Made by a program: the position numbers and the translations under genes. The notes under the pieces are model-generated. The model did no database searches and had not been told where the DNA came from. It saw nothing but the letters and a program-made list of their open reading frames with translations. Positions 8,506 through 49,688 of a stretch of 64,000 bases of DNA are shown here, piece after piece (position 1 is the stretch's first letter; each line of letters starts with the position of its first letter). This stretch comes from Methanobacteriota archaeon (GTDB taxonomy: Archaea; Methanobacteriota; Methanobacteria; Methanobacteriales; Methanobacteriaceae), in contig CAWBCJ010000029.1 of NCBI GenBank assembly GCA_963787255.1, forward strand, positions 864,001-928,000. Direction: 5' to 3'.

Positions 8506-8999
8506 CAAATCAAAGTAATAATGGGAATGAATTAATCATCACACGCATTTTCAATGCGCCGCCTAAGCTCGTGTGGAAGGCATGGACAAATCCTGACATG
8601 CTCATGCAGTGGTGGGGGCCAAAAGACTTTACATCACCCATCTCGAAGATAGATCTCCGAGTTGGAGGTGAATATTTCAACTGTATGCGTTCACCCGATG
8701 GCCAAGATTTTTGCAGCAAAGGCATTTATCGCGAAGTCGTAGAACTTGAAAGACTAGTCATGACCGATTCCTTCGCGGATAAGGAAGGCAACATGGTTCC
8801 AGCTTCATACTACGGGCTAGGTCCCGACTTCCCAATGGAAATGAAGATCACAGTAACATTCAAAGAAGAAGAAGGTAAGACAAAGCTCACCTTGAAACAT
8901 TCCGACGTCAAAAGCCTCAATGACACGGACCTTAATGATATGCGACAGGGTTGGAACGAATCCTTCGACAAACTCGCCGATGTCATGGCTAAGATTTGA
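8502..8999 (+). CDS. SRPBCC/AHSA1 domain protein
   Basis: ITRIFNAPPKLVWKAWTNP..WWGP, DLRVGG, GWNESFDKL. Confidence 0.9.
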   Translation: MTNQSNNGNELIITRIFNAPPKLVWKAWTNPDMLMQWWGPKDFTSPISKIDLRVGGEYFNCMRSPDGQDFCSKGIYREVVELERLVMTDSFADKEGNMVPASYYGLGPDFPMEMKITVTFKEEEGKTKLTLKHSDVKSLNDTDLNDMRQGWNESFDKLADVMAKI

Positions 9000-9054
9000 A
9001 ACTGAAGAGAATTAAACAATAAAAATTAATTTTATATTAATGAGGTGATTAATA

Positions 9055-9546
9055 ATGGCAAAAAATACTACAAAAATTACTGCAGAACCCGGAAAACAGG
9101 AAATTTTTATTATAAGGGAGTTTGATGCACCTCGAGAGCTTGTTTTTAAAGTATTCACGGATCCTGAGCTTTATGCACAATGGATTGGGCCAAGAGGACT
9201 CAAAACCACGATTGAGATATTTGAGCCGAAAAATGGGGGATCCTGGCGATACATTCAAAAAGATCAGGAAGGTAATGAGTTTGCATTTCATGGAGTGAAT
9301 CATGAAGTTCTAGCTCCTGAAAGAATTATCGACACATTTGAGTTTGAAGGACTTCCGGAAACTGGGCATGTTATTCTCGAAACGGCGAAATTTGAAGCAT
9401 TGCCAGGGAATAGAACAAAATTAACATCCCAATCTGTATTCCAGTCGGTTGAGGATCGTGATGGAATGATGCAGTCAGGCATGGAAGAAGGGGTAAATGA
9501 ATCCTACGAACGTCTTGATGAGCTGTTGGAAAAGATGCAAAAATAG
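9055..9546 (+). CDS. SRPBCC/AHSA1 domain protein
   Basis: [36 protein letters not shown]. Confidence 0.9.
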
Positions 9547-32799: not shown

Positions 32800-33153
32800 A
32801 TGAAATTAAAATATACTGGAATTGGAATCGTTATTTTAATATTGGGAATAGTTGCATTTTCTGGTTGTACTCAGAATCAGCAAACTACAACTGGGCAGAA
32901 TGCCCCAAATACTGTAATTATCCAAAATTTCGCATTTAATCCAGATACTCTTACTGTTCCTGTGGGAACAACAGTTACATGGATAAACCAGGAATCTGCA
33001 CCACATGATGTTGTAAGTGATACAGGAGCTTTCAAAAGCCCAAGTTTAAACACAGGAGCAAATTATACATACACTTTTAACCAGGCAGGCGAATATCCTT
33101 ATCACTGTGGAATACATCCATCAATGAAAGCTAAAGTAATCGTCAATAAATGA
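32800..33153 (+). CDS. Cupredoxin (plastocyanin/amicyanin-like) lipoprotein
   Basis: Signal peptide with lipobox FSGC; type-1 Cu ligands PHDV and YHCGIHPSM. Confidence 0.9.
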   Translation: MKLKYTGIGIVILILGIVAFSGCTQNQQTTTGQNAPNTVIIQNFAFNPDTLTVPVGTTVTWINQESAPHDVVSDTGAFKSPSLNTGANYTYTFNQAGEYPYHCGIHPSMKAKVIVNK

Positions 33154-33173: not shown

Positions 33174-33563
33174 ATGTTAAGTGAGATAGCTTATTTTCCA
33201 ATATTTGGAAAGCCGTTGATACTTTATATGGGTGTTATCACTCTTCTTTCATTCGTTATCACGGCTTCTATCGGTTTGATGATTTTTAGAGGTAGATCAA
33301 TACCTTTTAAATGGCATCCAACAATGGCAGGTATTTCTATAACTATTGGGATAATTCACGGAATTTTGGGAATATCAACAGGAAGGCCATTTATAATTCT
33401 TCTGGGTATCATTACAATATCCCTATTTCTCAGCACTGCCTCAATAGGCTTAATGATTTTTAAAGGAAGGAATATACCATTTAAAATTCATCCTACAATG
33501 GCCAGTATTGCCATAATGGTAGGAATAATTCATGGAACTTTGGGAATATCAATTTATCTATAA
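33174..33563 (+). CDS. Four-TM membrane protein with internal duplication and paired histidines
   Basis: Two repeats of ASIGLMIFxGRxIPFKxHPTMAxIxIxxGIIHG. Confidence 0.8.
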   Translation: MLSEIAYFPIFGKPLILYMGVITLLSFVITASIGLMIFRGRSIPFKWHPTMAGISITIGIIHGILGISTGRPFIILLGIITISLFLSTASIGLMIFKGRNIPFKIHPTMASIAIMVGIIHGTLGISIYL

Positions 33564-33639
33564 TATTCGATCTAAAAATGAATTAAATCATTTAAATAAT
33601 TTAATTATATCAAACATATTTCTTTAATATTAAAAATAG

Positions 33640-34893
33640 TTATTTAAATAAATCATTTAGTTCCGGGTGGATTTTATCTTTAATTCCAAGCTCATCCATG
33701 GTTTTTCCATAAGAATTATTAATTACTTTAAATTCTGCACGTACTATTCCTCTAAAAGCACCGTATCCCATGACTTTACCGTAATTTTCTGTTATAATTT
33801 CAATAATCTTACTGAAATCAATGATAAGTGTTTTTTCTCTTTCATCTAAAGGAATATCTTCAACATTTTCTCTTATTTTATCAAAATCTATTGCAGAATT
33901 GCTTTTCACATCAACATCTTTAAGGATGGTTTTGCAGTCTTCTAATGGTAAAAATCTTTTTATTAGACCTCTTGCGGGGGATACACCCATGATTTTACTT
34001 GCTCCAATGGACATTGCCAAAAATATGGATTCATAAACATCTAAAATTAAATTAGCCTTTTCTTCTGGAGATTCAGGTATTTGAACATTTTCAGGTAGTT
34101 TAGGGAATGAAATTGGAGGTCTAATAACTGGAATATTGCTACCTGGTTCTTCAACTTCTTCTGGAACTTCAAGCTCTTCATCAGACATTTCTGCTTCTAT
34201 TTCGAGTTCATCTTCTACAATTGAAGGTGTTATTTCTTCATTTTCAGCACTGATCTCATCTTCTGATTTAATTTCTAAAATTTCTGTAAGTTTTTCTTTG
34301 GCCTCTTCAGAATCCAGTGATTTGAATTCTTGTGATTCAATTATTTCATCTAATTTTTCAGTTCCCACTACTTTTTCAAATGCTTCGGAAATATCTTCAG
34401 TTTCGGCAATTCTTTCAACCACTTCTTCTATTTCTGCAGGTTCTAAATCTGATGATTCAATGAGTTTATCAATTTCAGACTTTTCAGTTGATACTTCTTC
34501 TTCAACTGTTTCTGTGAAAACCATATTTTTTGTAAGTTCCATTATATTTTGTGCGGCTCTTTTTGCTGAAACCATAACAAGTCCAACATTTGCTGATACT
34601 TCCATGAGCAAGATAAAATGAACATTACCTAGATGCAAAAATAAAGCCTTTCCTTCCTTTGATTCAACTAGAACTCGCTCTATTTCACCCTGGTCTGCAG
34701 AACTAAGTAATCTTTTAGAGGAACTGGTGATTACATATGCCATTGGTCCAAAAAGAGAAGTATCTGTCCCCCTTGACATGCTATGGCATATCACATTTCC
34801 GTTGCTATCGGATATTAAACCACTTTCTACGCCATCAATTCTATTTAAATCAATCAGTATGCTCATTAGTTGGTTTTCAGTGCTTGAGTCCAT
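33640..34893 (-). CDS. Roadblock/LC7 domain protein with acidic linker and helical C-terminal domain
   Basis: LNRIDGVESGLISDSNG...ANVGLVMVSAKRAA roadblock pattern in the first ~120 aa; Glu-rich middle. Confidence 0.85.
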   Translation of the reverse strand: MDSSTENQLMSILIDLNRIDGVESGLISDSNGNVICHSMSRGTDTSLFGPMAYVITSSSKRLLSSADQGEIERVLVESKEGKALFLHLGNVHFILLMEVSANVGLVMVSAKRAAQNIMELTKNMVFTETVEEEVSTEKSEIDKLIESSDLEPAEIEEVVERIAETEDISEAFEKVVGTEKLDEIIESQEFKSLDSEEAKEKLTEILEIKSEDEISAENEEITPSIVEDELEIEAEMSDEELEVPEEVEEPGSNIPVIRPPISFPKLPENVQIPESPEEKANLILDVYESIFLAMSIGASKIMGVSPARGLIKRFLPLEDCKTILKDVDVKSNSAIDFDKIRENVEDIPLDEREKTLIIDFSKIIEIITENYGKVMGYGAFRGIVRAEFKVINNSYGKTMDELGIKDKIHPELNDLFK

Positions 34894-35113
34894 ATAACCA
34901 CTTGTATATTTGAAAGAAGTATATCCTATGTGTATGTAGAATGTTTATTAAAAAATTATCTCCAAAATACTATTGTTTTATGATATTTAAATTAATTACA
35001 ATATCATTTTAATGTTCTGAATTTAATTGGAAAATATTAAATAATAATGATTATTCAATTTCAAAAGAGTATTGTTTAGCTTCATTTTTTTTAAATCAAT
35101 GATATTGACATTC

Positions 35114-35146
35114 AAAAAAAAAATAAAATAAAAATAAAAAAAGAAA
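35114..35146 (-). terminator. Oligo-T tract after the hydrogenase operon
   Basis: Long A-runs on + (T-runs on -) just 3' of the large-subunit stop codon. Confidence 0.45.
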
Positions 35147-35157
35147 GAGATTATTCG

Positions 35158-36606
35158 TTACAATACATGCCGTTTAAGGAGTACACCTTCGCTGTCATGT
35201 ATATCTACAAGTAAAGGAGATTCTCCGTTTATCATGTGAGTAGCACATGAGAGACATGGATCATAAGCTCTTACAATCATTTCAAGCTGATTTTTAAGCC
35301 CTTCAGATACTTCTTCGCCTTTAATCATGGCCTTTGCAGTTTCTCTTACACCTATATCCATTGAAAGGTTGTTTTGACCTGTTGAAACTATGAGATTTGC
35401 GCGGTTTATGTAACCTGCAGCATCTGTTTCATAATCGTGAATCAGAATTCCTCTTGTAGCTTCAATCATTCCAACGCCTCTTCTTGTTTCGCTGGATCCT
35501 TTTGCTTCTTCCCGGGTCATGAGAGTTTCTGAAAGACCTTGCCTTAAATCTGTTCCAGTAATTGAACCATCTTCAAGAAGCTGTACAGACCTTTCAGCTG
35601 CAAACATCAACTCAATTAAACGGGCATAATGGTATAGTAGAGCATTTTGGGCAATTCCATACTTATCTTTGTATTCGCCGAATAATTGGGAAGCTTTTTC
35701 AGTTGGAATGTTCTGTGCGATGTTCAATCTTGCAAGAGGCCCAACTCTGTAATTTCCTTCAGGGAATCCAATCTGTTTCAGGTACGGGAATTTGAGATAA
35801 GACCATGGCTGAACCTTTTCTTCGATGTAGTCTAAGTAATCGCTTGCTTCGAATTCGTAAACCGAATTACCGCCTTTGTCAATGACTTTAACAGGTGCAT
35901 CATAAAATTCTATATTTCCATTATTGCTTAAAGCACCGAAATGAGATTCAACAGGGCCTAAAAGTTCTATTGCTTCACTGTACTGTTCAAATAATGGTTT
36001 AGCTACTTCAACGCCCTTTTCTATAAGTCCTACGGCATCTTTAGCTTGTGATAGTAACTTTGATCGTTCTTCTTCTGTAATTCCTTTGGATTGACCGCCA
36101 GGTATAGCAGTTACAGGGCTGATTGGTTTTCCTCCAACTACGCTTGTTATATACTGTCCAATTTTTCGAGTATCTATTGCCATTTTTGCAAGCGCTGGGT
36201 CTTTTTTAAGGATACCTACAACGTTTCTGAGTGCAGGATCTGATTCCGGACCCATTACAAGATCAGGCGCCCCTAGGAAATAGAAATGAAGTGAATGTGA
36301 ATGGATGTATTGGCCTAAAAGCATAAGTTCTCTTAATTTTTGGGCAGTTTCTGGGGGCTGTAATCCAAATACCTGATCTGTAGCCTTAGCAGAAGCTAAA
36401 TGGTGCGCTGTTTGACATATGCCACATATACGTGGGGTAATTCGCGGTGCTTCTTCTACAGCAGCTCCCTCTAGAAATTTTTCAAAACCTCTTATTTCCA
36501 TTACGTGAAAGTGAGCATCTGAAACACTTCCAGAGTCATCTAATTGAACTGTGATTTTTGCGTGTCCTTCAATTCTGGTTACAGGGCTTATTTCAATATT
36601 TTTCAT
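35158..36606 (-). CDS. [NiFe]-hydrogenase large subunit (MvhA/VhcA-like, group 3c-like)
   Basis: [15 protein letters not shown]1 PRICGIC, L2 [12 protein letters not shown] plus a cleavable C-terminal extension. Confidence 0.95.
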
Positions 36607-36621
36607 AAATATCACCTTTAT

Positions 36622-37533
36622 TTATTTCTTGACCAGTTGAGGGATCAATGAAACCTGTTTTTCCTCCATTATGGTACTTCCAATTACAAATCCGTATATA
36701 ACATGCCCTATGTCATAAATCTGTTTTTCAACATCTTTTTCAGGCATCTTGGAAAGGTGAGCAATTCTTTTGATTACTCCATTATATAGATCGTGGCTTG
36801 GTTCTCTTAAAACATCCAGTGAAGGTCCTCCACAGCCATGACAGGGAATTCCAGCATCAGTACAGAGTGCACCGCATCTTCCAAGGGTTACTGAGCCTAA
36901 ACAAACGTATCCCTGGCTTAAGAAGCACTGTTGAGAGTCAGGATTTCCTTCTACTCTTCTATGGATTTTATCGAATTCTACGTGATCCATCCATCTTTGA
37001 CAATCTGCACAAACACTCTTTTTGGGAACATTTGGAGCTTCACCATTAATTAAAGGCAATAATATGTCTCCGGTTAATCTTTCCTTTGGAGGACAGCCAG
37101 GAATATAATAATCTACTTCAGTAAAGTCTCCTGCGGGATGAACAATAGGTAGAAGTTTTGGAACAACTTCTGAAGGCACGTCAGCTGATTCTGTACTTGG
37201 ATTATCTGAATATGTACGTGATGTTACTTCTTCAGGGCTGTATAAATCTGCCATTCCAGTTATACCGCCGTAACATGCGCATGTTCCGTATGCAATCAAT
37301 GTTTTTGATTTTTTCCTTAATTCCTCTAATCTTTCCTTGTTTTCTTCATTTCGAACAGATCCAGATACTATTGCTATATCAACATCTTCAGGAATTACTT
37401 TAGCATCAACTAATACGGGGCCATAAACTATTTCGGATTTTTCCAGTATCTGTAATAACTCTTCGTGTAAATCAAGAATCGATATTTCACAACCTGCACA
37501 ACTTGCAAGTGCTTCCATTGCAATTTTAACCAT
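36622..37533 (-). CDS. [NiFe]-hydrogenase small subunit (MvhG/VhcG-like)
   Basis: [46 protein letters not shown]. Confidence 0.93.
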
Positions 37534-38087
37534 TATTTACCACCCCATTTTATAGTCAGGGTTTTAAGGCAAGCATTCGGACCAACATGGTTTATATCCA
37601 GTTTTCCTTTGATGCTCATAACTTCCTCAACTGCACCAACCATGTATCCGTATAAAAGATAACATAATGGTCCTTTTTGAGGTAATCCTGTCCTTCGCAA
37701 TGTCTGTCTTACAACACAATCCATAAATAATAGTTGCACTACTGTTTCATCGCCTTTTTCAATTGTATATCCTTCCTGATTGGTTGGTTTCCACATCTCA
37801 AAATAAAATTCAATTCCAAGTATTTCGCTCAGTTCTTTCATGGCCTTTTCCAGGTTGTCTGTTTTTTCCATGAGCTTACCAGCTTCGTGTCCCATTCTTT
37901 TCCCTGCTTGGTAAACAATAGCATTAGCTCCACGGCCGGAAACCTGTTCCAGTGCACTAGACATGGAACCTACAAATTTCATTAAAACATGCAGTGCTTC
38001 TTCGTAATCGTCGATGTCACCACCTGTTTCTTTAGGAATTAATTCAGGTTTAAAATCCCCTCTTACATCTTCCCTTTCAATTTCCAT
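37533..38087 (-). CDS. V4R (4-vinyl reductase/XylR-type) domain protein
   Basis: [11 protein letters not shown] helix, [23 protein letters not shown], terminal AC; TAATG overlap with the small-subunit gene. Confidence 0.78.
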
Positions 38088-38097
38088 TACAAATCCC

Positions 38098-38349
38098 TCA
38101 TATTATTTTACTTAAAGCCTTATTCACTTTTCTGTCAATGTAAAGCCTTTTAGCCACATGTATATCGTCATGTTCTAGCGCTTGGGAAGGGCAAATTTCG
38201 TGGCATGATAGACAACCCATGCAATCTGTTTCATTCACTACTACAGTTTTTCCATGTTCTTTATCCAGTTCATATACATCGTTTGGACAGTCTTCAACGC
38301 AAGATCCGCATCCTACACATGCATCTTCGTCAACTTTTATTTTTACCAT
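38098..38349 (-). CDS. 2x[4Fe-4S] ferredoxin
   Basis: [12 protein letters not shown] and [12 protein letters not shown]. Confidence 0.93.
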
Positions 38350-38621
38350 ATCAATCCCCCCGGATTTCCCTTTTTTCATTTTTTTGGAGGTTCTTAAAAT
38401 AATTGAACCTTTTTCTAAACATTACTTATATTAAATTCGGTAATCTCAAATTTTTAAAATCACCTTTAGGGTTATTTTTTAATATAAAATCTTTTTATTA
38501 TTAAGGATTTATATTGCTCTTTATACATTTTAATACATGATAATAAGAAATTATTACTTGATAACAAAATAAATAGATTATATTTACAAAAATAATATCA
38601 AATTAGTTAATTATATTAAAA

Positions 38622-39230
38622 TTAGTTTAGTGGTGTTGTTGATACCAGTTTACAATGAGTTATGTATGCTGCTTGTTTTTTCCCTGGAGGATAACAAGTT
38701 ACTAAAAATAATCTTGCATCACCGCTTTGATCAAATTGAATAGGATTTTCTTCATAATCCCAGCGGATATCGTTGCCATTAGAAGTTACTTTATATGTAT
38801 ATTTTTTATTGGATGAATAATCTTTCACTATTACTTCATCACCAACATTAAGGCTACCTAATTTACCAAACAATCCAGAAAATTTAGTCCTATGGCTTAA
38901 AAATCCACATTCTCCACCTTGACCAGGATTTACACTCTCCGGATAATGATAAACAGCATTATACGCATTTACAGTATCCGAACGAATAGTACAATCCACG
39001 CCGATTTTTGGAATTATAAGTCTGGATTTAGTTATTCCACTTGTAGAAGTAGATCTTGTAATTGTAGGATTCAATGCATTTGTGGGTTTACTTTTGTTTC
39101 CTTGAGCATGTAATGCAGCATTATAAGAATTTAATGAATTAGATTTCTCAAAAGCAGCCATTATAATAACTGAACAAATAAGAATACTTATCACAATAAT
39201 GGCTATGGATAAAATTTTATATTTCAGCAT
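38622..39230 (-). CDS. Sortase-like protein
   Basis: N-terminal TM helix, RLIIPKIG, catalytic His (SHRT), LNVGD, LVTCYP. Confidence 0.85.
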
Positions 39231-39324: not shown

Positions 39325-40110
39325 TTATTTAGAAGTTTTATCACATTGCTCTTCGTCGGATTGCATTTTGGTTAAAACTTTATTCACTTCTCTTGCAAGA
39401 TTAGATCTTGAACTTGTAACTCTCCATGGATCGTTTATCCAGGTACAGAGCTTCAATTTAACTCCAATATCCGACAATTCTTTAACAATAACCTTTGGCT
39501 TGGGCTTTTTTAAAACACCCTCACAAGTTGAAGCTATATTTTCAAGTGATTTTATGGTTTTATCTAGTTCAAGATCGTAGGGTACAGTAATGTTTAAATC
39601 AACCCTTCTAATTTCTGATACAGTGTAATTTATGTATGGACTTGAGGAAAATATGGTATTGGGAACTTTTATTATCCTTTCATCGTAAGTAAGCAGTGTT
39701 GTAATCCTAAAACCAAGTTTAACTACTTTTCCCTTTTGATTGGAAATTTCAATAACATCTCCGACCCGCACACTCTTATCTGCAAGTATGAAAATCCCTG
39801 AAATAAAGTTTGATATGGTATCACGTGCACCAAAACCTATTGCTACACCAAAAATACCTAAACTAACTGCAATTGCTGTTAAATCAAATCCTAATTCTTT
39901 AAATATTATAAGTAGAGCAATACCATAAATTGAATATTTTATAATTTCATGGAGGGCCTGAATTAACGTTACATCAATGTCCCATTTGTTCCTTGCGATT
40001 TTAAGGAAATATACGGCCCATTTATAGATTAAAGATGCTCCAAGCAATGTAACTACTATTACTATTATATCTTGAAACCATGGTGATGTGGTCACAGATT
40101 CAAAAGCCAT
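39325..40110 (-). CDS. mscS: Small-conductance mechanosensitive channel
   Basis: AIGFGARDTISNFISG, VGDVIEI, IKVPN. Confidence 0.92.
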   Translation of the reverse strand: MAFESVTTSPWFQDIIVIVVTLLGASLIYKWAVYFLKIARNKWDIDVTLIQALHEIIKYSIYGIALLIIFKELGFDLTAIAVSLGIFGVAIGFGARDTISNFISGIFILADKSVRVGDVIEISNQKGKVVKLGFRITTLLTYDERIIKVPNTIFSSSPYINYTVSEIRRVDLNITVPYDLELDKTIKSLENIASTCEGVLKKPKPKVIVKELSDIGVKLKLCTWINDPWRVTSSRSNLAREVNKVLTKMQSDEEQCDKTSK

Positions 40111-43184: not shown

Positions 43185-45660
43185 TCACTTATTTAGAGTT
43201 TCTGTAGCCTTTTTAAGTTCAGTAATATCATAAATTATTGAAAAAACCTTTTTTTCTCCACCATAATCTATAAATTCAACAGTATACAATACTTGTACTG
43301 TTTTTCCACTTTTAGTTCGTATTTCCCGCTCTTCATTATAAATAGAATCTCCCTTAGTCAATATCTTAAGTACTGCATCTCGCTCTTCAACGCTAATAAT
43401 ATTTAAATCAGTAACTGCTTTTCCGAGTAATTCTTCTCGTTTATATTCTGTTATATTTGCATAAGCATCATTTACTTCAATTACTTCACCCTTTAAAGTC
43501 GTTATTACTATTCCTGCAGGATTAGAATAAAATGCCTTGGAATATTTCTCTTCACTCTCCTTGAGAAGTTCTTCAGCTTTTTTACGCTCAGTAATATCTG
43601 CGGCTATAACAACGCCTAAAATAATCTTTCCATTTTTATCTTTTATTGGTGTAGAACTGACACTTAGTACTTTTTCGGTTCCATTTTCAAACGAAACTGA
43701 GATTTCTTCATCTGTAACTACTTCTCCAGCAGCTATTGAACGTGATAATGGCCATTCTTTAGGTTTATAAGGACTACCATCTAGATGGAACCCTTTATAT
43801 GTACTATACTCTTCAATATCCTTTGAAAATGTAAAAGGTTGTCCCCACACTTTCTCAAACTGCTCATTAGCCCTTATTAACTTTCCTGAAGGAGCTTCAG
43901 CAACTGAAACTGCTACGGGGATATTATTTAAAACTGTATCTAAAAGGTTCTGTTCATTTCTTAACTGTTCTTCGGTTTTTTTCTGTTCTGTTATATCTCG
44001 AGTAATGCTTCCAATTATGGTTCCTCTTTCGGTTTTAATAGGATAAGTAACTGACTGTGTAAACCTTATTTCTCCATCAGGGCGTTGAATTTTACGATCT
44101 AACGGTTTATTCATCCAATTTGCATCTCCAGTTTGTAGAAATTGCAATATTGTGCCTTTTATGTAATCATATAGTTCGGGGGTTTTCTCTTCTTCTGGCA
44201 GTAGTTCATACTGTGAATCCCATATCTGCATATCAAGTTCTTCTTCTCGTTTATGGCCTGTTATTTTTTCCATTCCTTTGTTCCATTCAATAATAACGCC
44301 GTTTTCGTCTATTATGGAAATACCGTCAGTGGACTGTTCTATGGTGCTGCGGAATTTAATTTCACTTTCTAGTAAATCCATTTCTGCTTTTTTATATTCT
44401 GTAATGTCACGAATTGTTTCTATGGCGCCAACAAGATTTCCCTTATCGTCGTAAAGTGGGGAAATCTTTCCAAATAGATAACCTCCCTTTCCACCAAAGA
44501 TATTTTCTACAAAAGCTTCAGCAAATATAATATCTCCTTCTCGTTTTACGTAATCATATTTTGCATCTATTTCTTTTTCACTTTAAAAAAATCAAATCAA
44601 TTAAAATTGGTCTTTTATGTCCATAGAATGGTATGGAATAAGCGTAATCTCCTTTACCTAGTATTTCTTTCTTTGTGACTCCAGTCATTTCTTCAAGGGC
44701 TTTGTTCCATGCTATTACTTCTCTTTTTTCATTAATTACAAATGTAGCATCTGGTAAGAACTCTATAATATCTAAAAGTTTCTGACGTTCCTGATTTATT
44801 TTCTCTTCTGCTTTTTTGGGTTCGGTGATATCACGAACAGTTTCTATAGCACCAACAAGATTTCCTTTAGAGTCATATAGTGCAGAAGATTTTACAAATA
44901 CATAGGCCCCTTTTCCACCAAATAGATTATTTACATATACCTCAGCAAATAGAGTATCGTCTTCTCTTTTTACGTAACTGTATTTTGCTTCTATTTCTTC
45001 TTCCTTTAAAAAGATCAAATCAATTACTATTGGTCTTTTATGTCCATAGAATGGTATGGAATAAGCGTAATCTCCTTTACCTAGTATTTCTTTCTTTGTG
45101 ACTCCAGTCATTTCTTCAAGGGCTTTGTTCCATGCTATTACTTCTCTTTTTTCATTAATTACAAATGTAGCATCTGGTAAGAACTCTATAATATCTAAAA
45201 GTTTCTGACGTTCTTTATTTATTCTTTCTTCTGCTTTTTTCCTTTCAGTTATATCAGTTGTTAATGTTACACACAGGTCTTCTTTTGGTGAAAAGGCAGT
45301 AATGGTAAAATGTTTATCTAGTTTGGAACGATATATTTCGTATTTAGCCCCTCTTCCAGTATTTACTACTTCATTAGCTTTTTTAATATCTAATTTAACT
45401 TCTTCGGGAGTATAAATTTCTTTGATACTTTTTTCGATTAGGCCGTCCTTTAAATCTTTCCTCTGCTTGTAGGCAGCGAGATTAGCGTATTTTATTATTA
45501 GATCAACTACTTTTCCTGAATCGTCCCGTACTACAGCACTGACAATTACTCCTTCTTGCATATACTCAAAAAATCGATAATCTAAATCTAATAAAGGTCC
45601 ATATTCTTCTGACTCAATCCGAGATTCATCTATGTCATTTAAGTCTGGTTTTCGATCCAT
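43185..45660 (-). CDS. Multi-PAS/PAC sensor protein (~6 PAS; apparent frameshift at ~44580; no output domain)
   Basis: Repeated PAS cores with DITERKKAEE linkers; removing one base near 44582 joins ORFs 44578-45660 and 43185-44381. Confidence 0.85.
44606..45213. repeat. 185-bp identical direct repeat within the PAS gene
   Basis: 44606-44790 matches 45029-45213 (period 423 bp). Confidence 0.9.
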
Positions 45661-48194: not shown

Positions 48195-49280
48195 ATGAAA
48201 ATTGTATATAAAATAGGAGTGATTATTCTGTATGATGTAACTTCTGTAGAGGAACTTCAAAAACTCAACCCGTTTATAGTCATTGGATGCGGTGGTGGGG
48301 GAGAAAAGTTCGCCAATTTTGAGGGAATTAAGACTGTTGGTTTTGTTGACGACAATATTAAGAAACAAGGAATGGAATTTTGCAACAAGGTAATATCTTC
48401 AAATTTAAATGAGTTAATTGCAGAAACAAATGCTAATAGCATCGCGATAATGCTTCCAATTGGTGCTGAAGGATCAGCGCTTAAATATGCTGTGCAAGCT
48501 GTAGATAATGGAAAAAATGTGGTAGTTTCTTTCAGATCATTGTCTCTTGTTGAGAATAAATCACTGATTAAGTTTGCAGAATCTAAAGGTGTAGTTTTAA
48601 AGGAAATTAGCCCCCGTTTGGATGTTATTAAAAAAATATTTGGAACTGCACCTCCTCAATGTACGGAAGTACTGCCCAAGATTTTTTATAAACCAAAGGC
48701 GCCTGTTGTTTTCATAGGGGGTACTTCTCAAGAATGTGGAAAAAGAACTACTACAAGAATTCTTGGAAAAACTGCCGAAGAGAAAGGTTTAAAGGTAGCA
48801 GTAATATCTACTGACGAGATGGGTCTTGAAAACCCTGTTGATATGAATTTCAGGGCAGGAAGTCTTTCAGTAATGGACGTAGCAGCTGCAGTTATGGGTT
48901 CCATGAGATACATGGAAGAAAAAAAGAATCCCGATATCATACTGGTTGAGGGGCAGTCCAGCCTCACTGAGAAAGGAAATCCACATCCAAGGGGGCTTTC
49001 TGGCGCTATACTCATAGGTGCAATGCCTGATGTTACTGTTGTTTGTCATAGGCCTAACCATCCTTTCAGGGAGCCACGTGGAATAAACAATGAGATTAGA
49101 GCAATTGAAGCAGTGGAACCTACAAAAGTTGTTGCTATTTCCTTGAATATGAGGAATGTTACTGACAAAAAGGATATATTAGAGTATGAGGAAAGATACA
49201 AATTACCAGCAGTAGATATTAAAAATGGTGGAGCGTCAAAATTGCTCGACGTTATAATGGATCATGTGGGGATGAATTAA
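48195..49280 (+). CDS. DUF1611 domain protein (Rossmann plus P-loop)
   Basis: GCGGGG Rossmann motif, [19 protein letters not shown]; real start probably near 48219. Confidence 0.8.
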
Positions 49281-49334: not shown

Positions 49335-49688
49335 ATGAAAGATGTCATGGATTATATTAAGAAAAATCTGGGAATGGAAGAGGAAAGAGAAGCAGAAGAA
49401 GATAAAGAACCTATTATAGTTCCGGAACATTCTTTTTATGAGATAATCCTGATGAAAGCCAATGACATTCCAGATATAGAAGACGCGCTGAACCAAATCA
49501 AAGAAGAAAAAAATCCAATCATATTAAACATGAGTTTTATAGAAGAAAGTCCGGAAGATTTCAAACTGGTTGGAGAAAAATTGAAGGAATTTAGAGACAC
49601 AGTAGGTGGGGAAGCTATTTTATTGTGTAAAAATGGTAAAAATGTGGTAATTATTACCCCCCCTGAGATTAAGCTTGTAAGAAAGTAA
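49335..49688 (+). CDS. sepF: SepF family cell division protein
   Basis: N-terminal amphipathic helix, acidic linker, core NPIILNM...VGGE...[10 protein letters not shown]. Confidence 0.8.

Follow-up and report, generated by a model that had tools for sequence, protein, structure and literature searches.

A widely conserved Mvh-like [NiFe]-hydrogenase gene cassette that encodes a ferredoxin and a V4R-fold protein instead of MvhD

Introduction

Comparative papers regard methanogen hydrogenases of the Mvh type as a single enzyme, which supplies HdrABC via MvhD. The DNA studied here, from a Methanobacterium genome (a stretch of 64,000 nucleotides, hereafter the window) raises the question of what such a hydrogenase does when its genes are accompanied not by mvhD, but by genes for a ferredoxin and a V4R-like protein, with a Roadblock/LC7 gene downstream. 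An earlier note, made from the sequence alone, proposed that the enzyme may report H2 or the ferredoxin redox state to a signaling pathway instead of feeding HdrABC. Our comparative analyses lead us to favor a different answer, to which we assign a probability of roughly 55%: the cassette is a single operon of four genes and encodes a catalytic [NiFe]-hydrogenase of the cytoplasm, derived from group 3c but distinct, with ferredoxin and V4R-fold subunits.

Organization of the locus

The five ORFs (window 33640-38379) are all on the minus strand (Table 1). As the earlier note described, four of them form a tight co-oriented run and the Roadblock gene follows on the same strand, its start lying 264 bp from the large-subunit stop. 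The stop codon of the V4R-like gene and the start codon of the small-subunit gene overlap in the sequence TAATG. The ferredoxin frame remains open back to a first ATG at 38379 (38098-38379, 93 aa), upstream of the likely start given in Table 1, and the large-subunit ORF (35158-36615) has its likely start at ATG 36606, behind GGTGA. The ferredoxin contains two CxxCxxCxxxCP motifs and matches Pfam Fer4 (52 bits) as well as the dicluster models Fer4_10 and Fer4_7. Archaeal transcription is terminated by oligo-T tracts and, as read from the sequence, the long T-rich tract after the large-subunit gene is probably the end of a four-gene transcription unit. Short contigs in a soil metatranscriptome run match the V4R-like, small-subunit, large-subunit and Roadblock genes (85-99% alike), which is weak evidence, as these are contigs, they stem from related organisms, and carried-over DNA may be their source.

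Table 1. Features of the hydrogenase locus, in window coordinates
Feature	Position	Strand	Remarks
2x[4Fe-4S] ferredoxin	38098..38349	-	83 aa from likely start ATG 38349, behind GGGGG
V4R-fold protein	37533..38087	-	184 aa; Cys C124, C142, C173; AF2 and Foldseek
MvhG-like [NiFe]-hydrogenase small subunit	36622..37533	-	303 aa; Oxidored_q6, VhuG
MvhA-like [NiFe]-hydrogenase large subunit	35158..36606	-	482 aa; NiFeSe_Hases, VhuA, motifs
T-rich tract	35114..35150	-	directly 3' of large-subunit stop codon; read from sequence
Roadblock/LC7 protein	33640..34893	-	417 aa; Robl_LC7 match

An Mvh-like hydrogenase distinct from canonical Mvh

The closest characterized relatives of the two hydrogenase subunits are MvhA and MvhG. 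The small subunit matches Pfam Oxidored_q6 (105.6 bits) and, over an alignment limited to residues 2-243, NCBIfam VhuG (260 bits). Aligned with canonical MvhG, it keeps all cluster-binding cysteine columns, and its C-terminal ~60 residues differ systematically from those of MvhD-linked MvhG proteins. The large subunit matches Pfam NiFeSe_Hases (126 bits) and NCBIfam VhuA (454 bits). Although VhuA and VhuG are the best NCBIfam models, both subunits score below the respective cut-offs (800 and 450 bits); since the canonical MvhA and MvhG of the same genome also do so (455.6 and 298 bits), these models do not discriminate. In line with what had been anticipated, databases label the subunits as “Ni/Fe hydrogenase subunit alpha” or “F420-non-reducing hydrogenase” and nothing more.

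The Ni-Fe motifs RICGIC and DPCLSCATH, the all-cysteine L1 and L2 motifs of the earlier description, are indeed intact in the large subunit as well as in all 16 archaeal homologues checked, and the C-terminal pattern that we used had no match in three bacterial-like large subunits. DPCLSCATH is followed by a 25-aa C-terminal extension, and an extension is likewise present in all 16 archaeal sequences.

The same genome contains a canonical mvhD-G-A-B at G000:C29:56.6-60.7 kb, as the earlier note had expected, and the cassette thus does not encode its only MvhA; the two large subunits are 49% identical. MvhD genes are found at C29:60.3 kb, 187.5 kb and 697.5 kb; the second stand-alone one lies between FrhB-like genes, away from the V4R cluster. 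In a quick IQ-TREE phylogeny of 125 sequences with SH-aLRT support, the archaeal V4R-linked sequences (8 Methanobacteriaceae, 11 Methanomicrobiales-like and 1 Methanofollis representative) form their own clade (support 97), separate from that of nine MvhD-linked canonical MvhA (support 100), and both clades sit in a wider group (support 84). The large subunit thus falls in a clade apart from MvhA, the outcome that the earlier note had named as support for its proposal.

The V4R-fold protein

The protein encoded ahead of the small subunit had been called a V4R-type protein, with cysteines in the contexts DC, PLC and AC. The cysteines are as described (C124, C142 and C173, in this order); among 20 diverse homologues, C124 is invariant and the other two are kept in 90% or more, with E154 and H167 also conserved. 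The V4R assignment itself holds for the fold, but not for the Pfam V4R model (PF02830), which gave no match to the protein even at E≤10, its sole Pfam match being a sub-threshold one to ATC_hydrolase. Among 20 family members, V4R matched weakly in 4 (best E 0.0035) and in none at its cut-off, while ATC_hydrolase matched below cut-off in 6; no profile similarity to a Pfam-V4R protein of the same genome was seen. By contrast, an AF2 model of moderate confidence (pLDDT 71) retrieved 44 PDB matches with Foldseek at E≤0.001, the top ones being the sensor domains of MopR/PoxR/DmpR, Bet3/TRAPPC3 and the V4R protein MJ1460 (2osd), with E values from 4.5e-6 to 5e-4, a probability of 1.00 and TM scores of about 0.45-0.60. 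The predicted structure supports the placement of this protein in the V4R/Bet3 fold superfamily. The MopR sensor domain has a zinc site and, by analogy, the conserved cysteines suggest a metal site here as well.

Across 20 Methanobacteriaceae loci the V4R-like gene is the most conserved of the neighborhood (77-97% identity; small subunit, 75-94%; large subunit, 76-92%; ferredoxin, 65-91%; Roadblock protein, 42-79%). The V4R-fold protein is probably a hydrogenase subunit; its gene occupies the position that mvhD has in the canonical operon.

Conservation of the cassette

The four-gene cassette is common to Methanobacteriaceae, to Methanoculleus/Methanofollis-like loci and, reordered, to bacterial-like loci, and the order ferredoxin-V4R-small subunit-large subunit, proposed for a synteny check across methanogens, is kept far beyond the genus. 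The hydrogenase genes follow the V4R-like gene in all loci with room for them (20/20, 75/75 and 55/55) and the ferredoxin gene directly precedes it in 19/20, 78/79 and 66/69; in the three bacterial-like loci it comes after the large subunit instead. Gene overlaps recur, with 1 nt shared by the V4R-like and small-subunit genes in 14 of 20 Methanobacteriaceae loci and 4 nt shared by the two hydrogenase genes in 51 of 60 Methanomicrobiales-like loci. The reported absence of MvhD from the cluster holds across the loci compared: tblastn with the genome's own MvhD detected it in none of 180 cassette loci. Bacterial-like clusters encode a HycI protease, with a second V4R-like gene beside it, and no Roadblock gene.

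The V4R-type enzyme was detected in 62 of 151 genomes and in 10 of 27 genera. The cassette occurs in soil and sediment Methanobacterium. In that genus, which keeps canonical MvhDGAB, the enzyme is accessory. Methanoculleus loci also carry the V4R-type cluster. Memar_1007-1008 is reported as the sole F420-non-reducing hydrogenase of Methanoculleus marisnigri, with mvhD beside hdr, and is assumed to feed MvhD/HdrABC (PMC2686161). We infer that Memar_1007-1008 is of the V4R-linked type. In Methanoculleus, the V4R-type enzyme is apparently the sole hydrogenase of the Mvh type and appears to be what has been called “Mvh” there. An enzyme that is its genome's only MvhA would, by the earlier note's own standard, speak against its proposal; this is not so in the present genome, but apparently is in Methanoculleus.

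The Roadblock/LC7 neighbor

The Robl_LC7 match (PF03259, 30.2 bits; gathering cut-off 23) covers residues 15-94 of the downstream protein. Alignment of 19 orthologues delimits this N-terminal domain and a conserved C-terminal one (aa 254-417), with an acidic, variable linker between them. The C-terminal domain is helical, and its model (pLDDT 90.6) had no match in a fold search. As the whole genome contains only two Robl_LC7 genes, this one included, chance adjacency to a hydrogenase is unlikely. The linkage is strict in the Methanomicrobiales-like loci, where Roadblock genes, encoding proteins of 115 aa and ~220 aa, come directly after the large subunit in all 50 testable cases (median distance 29 bp), and frequent in Methanobacteriaceae (no more than 1 kb apart in 17/20 and 59/71 loci). 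However, the Methanobacteriales gene also exists without the hydrogenase: it was present in 17 of 17 genomes sampled from four genera that yielded no V4R protein, and in the five of these inspected it directly adjoins a sortase gene with no cassette. Conversely, the four genes moved as a unit in one lineage (g3/g12), leaving the Roadblock gene behind, now 300 kb away. No GTPase gene adjoins the Roadblock gene among the neighboring ORFs; a 181-aa ORF on contig C18 has weak Arf/Ras matches, and the same Pfam models match in 13-14 of 14 control genomes. The Roadblock/LC7 protein is a recurrent, non-obligate neighbor and a possible regulator or adaptor.

Function of the enzyme

We infer that the ferredoxin and the V4R-fold protein are physical subunits of an enzyme with a catalytic, non-sensory role. 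In favor of this reading are the gene order shared by three distant groups, the tight packing, the missing MvhD, the high conservation of the V4R-like gene, the separate clade, the kept cysteines and distinctive tail of the small subunit, the extension of the large subunit, the HycI gene of bacterial-like clusters and the joint move of the four genes in g3/g12. The Ni-Fe site in the large subunit would cleave H2, and the electrons would then travel along the small subunit's three Fe-S clusters and exit via the co-encoded 2x[4Fe-4S] ferredoxin, instead of via MvhD to HdrA. The V4R-fold protein, with its three cysteines, would act as a stoichiometric subunit in the place of MvhD, most likely binding a metal or small ligand and docking on the small subunit at its altered C-terminal tail. 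Against this proposal, reducing a ferredoxin directly with H2 is thermodynamically unfavorable when H2 is low, a purely catalytic role leaves the recurrent Roadblock neighbor in two archaeal orders unexplained, and for Methanoculleus the literature assumes a route to MvhD/HdrABC (PMC2686161).

The strongest competitor, itself doubtful, is an ordinary Mvh isoenzyme that would borrow MvhD from elsewhere to feed HdrABC, with the ferredoxin in the role of MvhB and the V4R-fold protein as an accessory. The close kinship of both subunits with MvhA and MvhG, the additional MvhD domains of the genome and the separately encoded mvhD of M. marisnigri all fit this idea, although the last depends on Memar_1007-1008 being V4R-linked. 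Yet MvhD is consistently missing from the loci, the second stand-alone copy is not close to the cluster, the small-subunit tail and the large-subunit clade are both distinct from those of MvhD-linked enzymes, and a complete canonical mvhDGAB is also present in Methanobacterium. Less plausible is the earlier proposal, in which hydrogenase, V4R protein and ferredoxin would report H2 or the ferredoxin redox state, and Roadblock/LC7 proteins would pass the signal to an NTPase or other effector. The ligand-sensing function of the V4R-fold domains in MopR, PoxR and DmpR agrees with it, as do the recurrence of the Roadblock gene and the accessory occurrence of the enzyme beside canonical Mvh. However, the cluster contains no kinase, GTPase or DNA-binding gene and hence no signaling output; the large subunit retains its C-terminal extension, as in processed catalytic enzymes, whereas the sensor hydrogenases known to us lack one; bacterial-like versions have a maturation protease and no Roadblock gene; and Roadblock genes persist without the cassette and are separated from the operon here by a terminator-like tract. 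These observations weaken the sensor proposal.

A variant of this scheme, less plausible again, would have the group-3c-derived hydrogenase pass electrons to the V4R-fold subunit and Roadblock/LC7 proteins read its redox or ligand state. Bet3-like V4R and Roadblock/longin-like folds build eukaryotic GTPase regulators of the TRAPP/Ragulator type; were the variant true, a novel archaeal H2/redox sensor would pair the two and tie them to hydrogen metabolism. The least plausible of the alternatives makes the V4R-fold protein a dedicated assembly or maturation factor, delivering metal or clusters without being a stable subunit. Its (near-)invariant cysteines, E154 and H167, and the second V4R-like gene beside HycI in bacterial-like clusters are compatible with such a task, but a stoichiometric subunit accounts better for its very high conservation and for the coupling of its translation to that of the small subunit, and we know of no hydrogenase maturation factor with a V4R fold.

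The cassette is a second, widely conserved and uncharacterized architecture among Mvh-type hydrogenases, with a ferredoxin and a V4R-fold protein replacing MvhD. If the catalytic enzyme that we favor does not dock on MvhD/Hdr, the H2-electron donor to heterodisulfide reductase in Methanomicrobiales needs to be re-examined. A V4R-fold subunit would be a first among hydrogenases and would give this widespread, poorly understood archaeal fold a testable biochemical context, while the repeated Roadblock/LC7 neighbor offers a lead on the archaeal role of these proteins.

Comparison with known systems

Like the group 2b sensors (HoxBC/HupUV, with the kinases HoxJ/HupT), the cassette enzyme is a second, accessory hydrogenase, here beside signaling-type domains. 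Group 2b large subunits lack a C-terminal extension and have a partner histidine kinase; the cassette enzyme, by contrast, belongs to another hydrogenase group, has the extension and is encoded in a cluster without histidine kinase or response regulator. With the Roadblock/LC7/MglB regulators of small GTPases, the neighboring proteins share the Robl_LC7 domain; MglB-type regulators have a small Ras-like GTPase gene as partner. The protein studied here has no GTPase encoded next to it, and its Robl domain continues into an acidic linker and then a helical domain without fold match. The V4R protein has the same fold, according to Foldseek, as MopR/PoxR/DmpR, MJ1460 and TRAPP Bet3 but, unlike MopR-type proteins, it stands alone in a hydrogenase operon and is not part of a transcription activator. 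The nearest system is MvhAGD(B)/VhuAGD, the group 3c H2 donor of HdrABC, which has homologous subunits with the same Ni-Fe motifs and small-subunit cluster cysteines, a processed C-terminus and a cytoplasmic location, with neither signal peptide nor membrane subunit encoded in the cluster. The cassette differs from it in the separate clade of its large subunit, in the tail of its small subunit and in the replacement of mvhD and the mvhB polyferredoxin gene by upstream genes for a small 2x[4Fe-4S] ferredoxin and for the three-cysteine protein of V4R fold.

A hydrogenase gene cluster separate from the canonical mvhDGAB operon

Five co-oriented ORFs occupy the minus strand of the window at 33640-38379. 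Four of them form a unit coding for a ferredoxin (Fd), a V4R-like protein and the small (G) and large (A) subunits of a hydrogenase (Fd-V4R-G-A, hereafter the cassette), and the fifth, a Roadblock/LC7 gene, follows after 264 bp. The stop of the V4R-like gene overlaps the start of the small-subunit gene (TAATG), and the large subunit carries the motifs RICGIC and DPCLSCATH, with a C-terminal extension of 25 aa behind the latter. In one run of a soil metatranscriptome, short contigs 85-99% alike matched the V4R-like, small-subunit, large-subunit and Roadblock genes, which is weak evidence of expression; among the RNA runs, a single one contained 6% of the sampled words, and the gap in contigs at 33500-34000 and 38176-38500 (bins with the ferredoxin start) is uninformative.

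Features of the hydrogenase gene cluster and its surroundings in the window
Feature	Position	Strand	Remarks
Cupredoxin/plastocyanin-like protein	32800-33153	+	hydrophobic segment at N-terminus
Membrane protein, 129 aa	33174-33563	+	two similar halves; after cupredoxin-like gene
Roadblock/LC7 protein, 417 aa	33640-34893	-	Robl_LC7 (Pfam), 30.2 bits; cut-off 23
C-terminal domain of the 417-aa protein	33643-34134	-	
T-rich tract, 37 nt	35114-35150	-	directly behind large-subunit stop
Hydrogenase large subunit	35158-36615	-	NiFeSe_Hases, 126 bits (Pfam); VhuA, 454 bits, best NCBIfam model; probable start ATG 36606, GGTGA ahead of it
Hydrogenase small subunit	36622-37533	-	Oxidored_q6, 105.6 bits (Pfam); VhuG, 260 bits, best NCBIfam model
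V4R-like protein, 184 aa	37533-38087	-	
Ferredoxin	38098-38379	-	Fer4, 52 bits (Pfam); probable start ATG 38349 behind GGGGG
Sortase-domain protein (60 bits) and adjoining MscS channel	38622-39230 and 39325-40110	-	
Two PAS-only proteins	43185-44381 and 44578-45660	-	without recognised output domain
Second Roadblock/LC7 protein, 139 aa	47736-48155	-	72 bits
DUF1611 P-loop protein	48195-49280	+	
SepF-like protein	49335-49688	+	

A whole-genome search retrieved a second large subunit, 49% identical to that of the cassette, which forms part of an mvhD-G-A-B operon of the classical type (C29:56.6-60.7 kb), so that the canonical operon expected elsewhere in this genome is indeed present. A stand-alone MvhD (G000:C29:185977-189345) lies between two FrhB/FdhB-like genes with a ferredoxin-like ORF, in a locus resembling the F420-dependent electron-donating proteins named in the available part of PMC12350162; a third MvhD domain is part of a 794-aa open frame, and both are distant from the cluster in the window. 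Canonical MvhA is present in 119 of 121 genomes and, among the matches listed, a second one at ~50% identity is confined to V4R-positive genomes, where it adjoins the V4R gene.

Our tree comprised 125 large subunits: 94 full-length representatives obtained by searching 1.84 billion proteins (fragments below 420 aa removed), 22 V4R-linked sequences and nine MvhD-linked ones with confirmed mvhDGA(B) context. The V4R-linked large subunits of Methanobacteriaceae and of Methanomicrobiales-like loci, together with one Methanofollis representative, form one clade (SH-aLRT 97), and canonical MvhA forms another (SH-aLRT 100), a separation that the earlier note named as support for its reading; the bacterial V4R-linked sequences lie in a third, into which a Geobacter MAG falls; the tree is unrooted and its deep branches are poorly resolved. 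In the small subunits every cluster cysteine column is kept, but V4R-linked and MvhD-linked types show a systematic difference in the C-terminal ~60 residues. Such a difference would be consistent with another partner at the point where electrons leave the enzyme.

Conservation of the cassette

Of the 151 genomes of the order that were sampled, 62 gave a match to the V4R-like protein; they represent 10 of 27 genera and a single family. The order Fd-V4R-G-A is intact in all 20 Methanobacteriaceae loci fetched by coordinates and recurs, at 47-55% identity, in Methanomicrobiales-like loci of a metagenome scan seeded with distant homologues; three bacterial-like loci have the order V4R-G-A-Fd. Counting only loci with enough room, both subunits follow the V4R gene in 20/20 fetched loci, in 75/75 of 80 Methanobacteriaceae genome-contig loci and in 55/55 of 80 metagenome loci, and a ferredoxin lies directly upstream of it in 19/20, 78/79 and 66/69, respectively. 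MvhD was found in none of 180 cassette loci. Named carriers include Methanoculleus thermophilus, M. bourgensis and other Methanoculleus, Methanofollis formosanus and M. aquaemaris.

The surroundings of the cassette vary. In the bacterial-like loci, V4R-G-A-Fd is followed by a second V4R/ATC_hydrolase-like protein of 156-159 aa and by a HycI maturation protease (L217 11098-12026, L218 11289-12232, L219 5485-6443). In some close relatives another ferredoxin copy lies upstream of the cassette, and one of these genomes, G141, additionally has the degraded remains of a V4R-like gene with six stop codons (L042, from G141, 8603-9133; L040 6589-6855; L051 6594-6866). Some Methanoculleus-like loci have an ORF of comparable length (264-274 aa) and placement just upstream of the ferredoxin gene (L161 6743-7558, L148 6710-7504, L178 6564-7388), where other loci have unrelated genes; the one scanned, in L161, codes for a ParA/Mrp-type P-loop NTPase of the NUBPL iron-transfer family.

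The V4R-fold protein

The assignment of the 184-aa protein to V4R proved valid at the level of the fold, although the Pfam V4R model gives no match to it even at E≤10. Its sole Pfam match is ATC_hydrolase (24.3 bits, under the cut-off of 28.1), and among 20 family members weak matches are to ATC_hydrolase in six and to V4R in four (best E 0.0035). A PDB profile search with the family returned nothing under E 0.48, and hhalign detected no similarity to either a Pfam-V4R protein of the same genome or the Roadblock protein family. The fold call relies on an AlphaFold2 model (pLDDT 71, from a 20-sequence alignment), for which Foldseek returned 44 PDB matches at E≤0.001, with MopR, PoxR and DmpR (aromatic-sensor domains) ranking ahead of Bet3/TRAPPC3 and the MJ1460 “vinyl-4-reductase family” protein; the database name of this protein type, “hydrocarbon binding protein (contains V4R domain)”, agrees. 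C124 is invariant in the 20 sequences and C142, C173, E154 and H167 are each kept in at least 90% of them. Across the 20 Methanobacteriaceae loci no other gene in the vicinity is as well conserved, the V4R-like protein reaching 77-97% identity against 42-79% for the Roadblock protein. A complex prediction with both subunits scored 0.00 and, run without controls, weighs neither for nor against binding.

Roadblock proteins beside the cassette

In the 417-aa Roadblock protein, the Roadblock domain at the N-terminus (27% identity with a 115-aa Methanoculleus protein) is joined through an acidic linker, which is variable, to a conserved C-terminal domain of ~164 aa with 46 invariant columns in 19 sequences. 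The model of this last domain is a helical bundle of high confidence (pLDDT 90.6), for which Foldseek returned nothing from the PDB at E≤0.001, all ESM Atlas scores were ≤0.83 and the best Z of a wide VIA search was 5.8, within helical-bundle noise; the model thus has no convincing PDB or Atlas match, from which a new fold does not follow.

In Methanobacteriaceae the entire neighbourhood NadC-RNaseZ-MscS-sortase-cassette-Robl-RFC is syntenic, and tblastn with the Methanobacterium Roadblock protein gave no match in the other loci. A lack of specific Roadblock linkage, as these two observations seemed to indicate, was overturned by Pfam scans of the downstream ORFs, since tblastn misses the Methanomicrobiales genes. 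Methanomicrobiales-like loci code for a 113-130-aa Roadblock protein immediately after the large subunit and then for a second protein, of ~220 aa or, in at least eight loci (L155, L159, L165, L169, L175, L198, L204, L213), 624-675 aa, with the Roadblock domain C-terminal; the long N-terminal part of the latter has no Pfam hit. With a local profile, a Roadblock ORF was found within 1 kb downstream in 50 of 53 testable metagenome loci (median 29 bp), the other three being the bacterial-like ones, and in named Methanoculleus records the accession numbers run consecutively, in line with this gene order. The corresponding counts in Methanobacteriaceae are 17/20 and 59/71 (median 204-232 bp). Chance adjacency is unlikely given that the genome under study has just two Robl_LC7 genes; the other lies 13 kb away, divergent from the DUF1611 gene and next to the SepF-like one.

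Other observations speak against a link. In the window, the large-subunit stop is followed by the 37-nt T-rich tract. The Methanobacteriaceae misses fall into two classes. Some loci have one or two inserted genes, which place the Roadblock gene 1.2-2.9 kb off; extra same-strand ORFs of ~134 aa, ~293 aa or both occur between the large-subunit and Roadblock genes in L047, L073-L075, L077 and L091 (only one of 135 aa in L073, only one of 297 aa in L091). In lineage g3/g12 the cassette is elsewhere (300 kb away in genome G005) and the Roadblock gene is still beside the sortase. Furthermore, the Roadblock C-terminal domain occurs in 79/151 genomes and 14/27 genera, namely all ten V4R-positive genera and four without detected V4R protein (17/17 genomes), and five of five inspected genomes of the latter type have NadC-RNaseZ-MscS-sortase-Roadblock with nothing between. 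Three families of the order conserve the sortase and MscS pair next to the cassette or to the Roadblock gene. In Methanobacteriales the Roadblock protein therefore exists independently of the cassette, which either was inserted beside its gene or was lost from there several times.

Discussion

The best account of the four-gene unit is that it encodes a distinct cytoplasmic [NiFe]-hydrogenase, competent for catalysis, in which a small ferredoxin and a V4R-fold Cys3 subunit would constitute the electron-exit module, replacing MvhD (and MvhB). Several features agree better with an enzyme than with a dedicated sensor: the processed-type C-terminus of the large subunit, the HycI protease encoded with the bacterial versions, the very strong conservation seen in the V4R-fold protein, the translational coupling and the joint movement of the four genes. 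The idea that the cassette reports H2 or ferredoxin redox state, with Roadblock proteins as relay, is a less likely reading, kept up by the recurrence of these proteins beside the cassette in two orders, the strongest point for a functional link. Another less likely reading is an isoenzyme still docking on MvhD/Hdr: Methanoculleus loci carry the V4R-type cluster, so the Methanoculleus “Mvh” (Memar_1007-1008 of M. marisnigri, the sole F420-non-reducing hydrogenase reported in the available part of PMC2686161) is probably a V4R-type cassette enzyme.

In the portions of the literature covered, we found no hydrogenase with a V4R-fold or Roadblock partner, although supplementary hydrogenase tables (e.g. 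of PMC13135261 and PMC8115248) may list the second copy. The passages covered on the group 3c hydrogenase in Methanoculleus do not mention a second type. The comparative papers, in the sections available, handle the Mvh of Methanobacterium and that of Methanomicrobiales as a single type.
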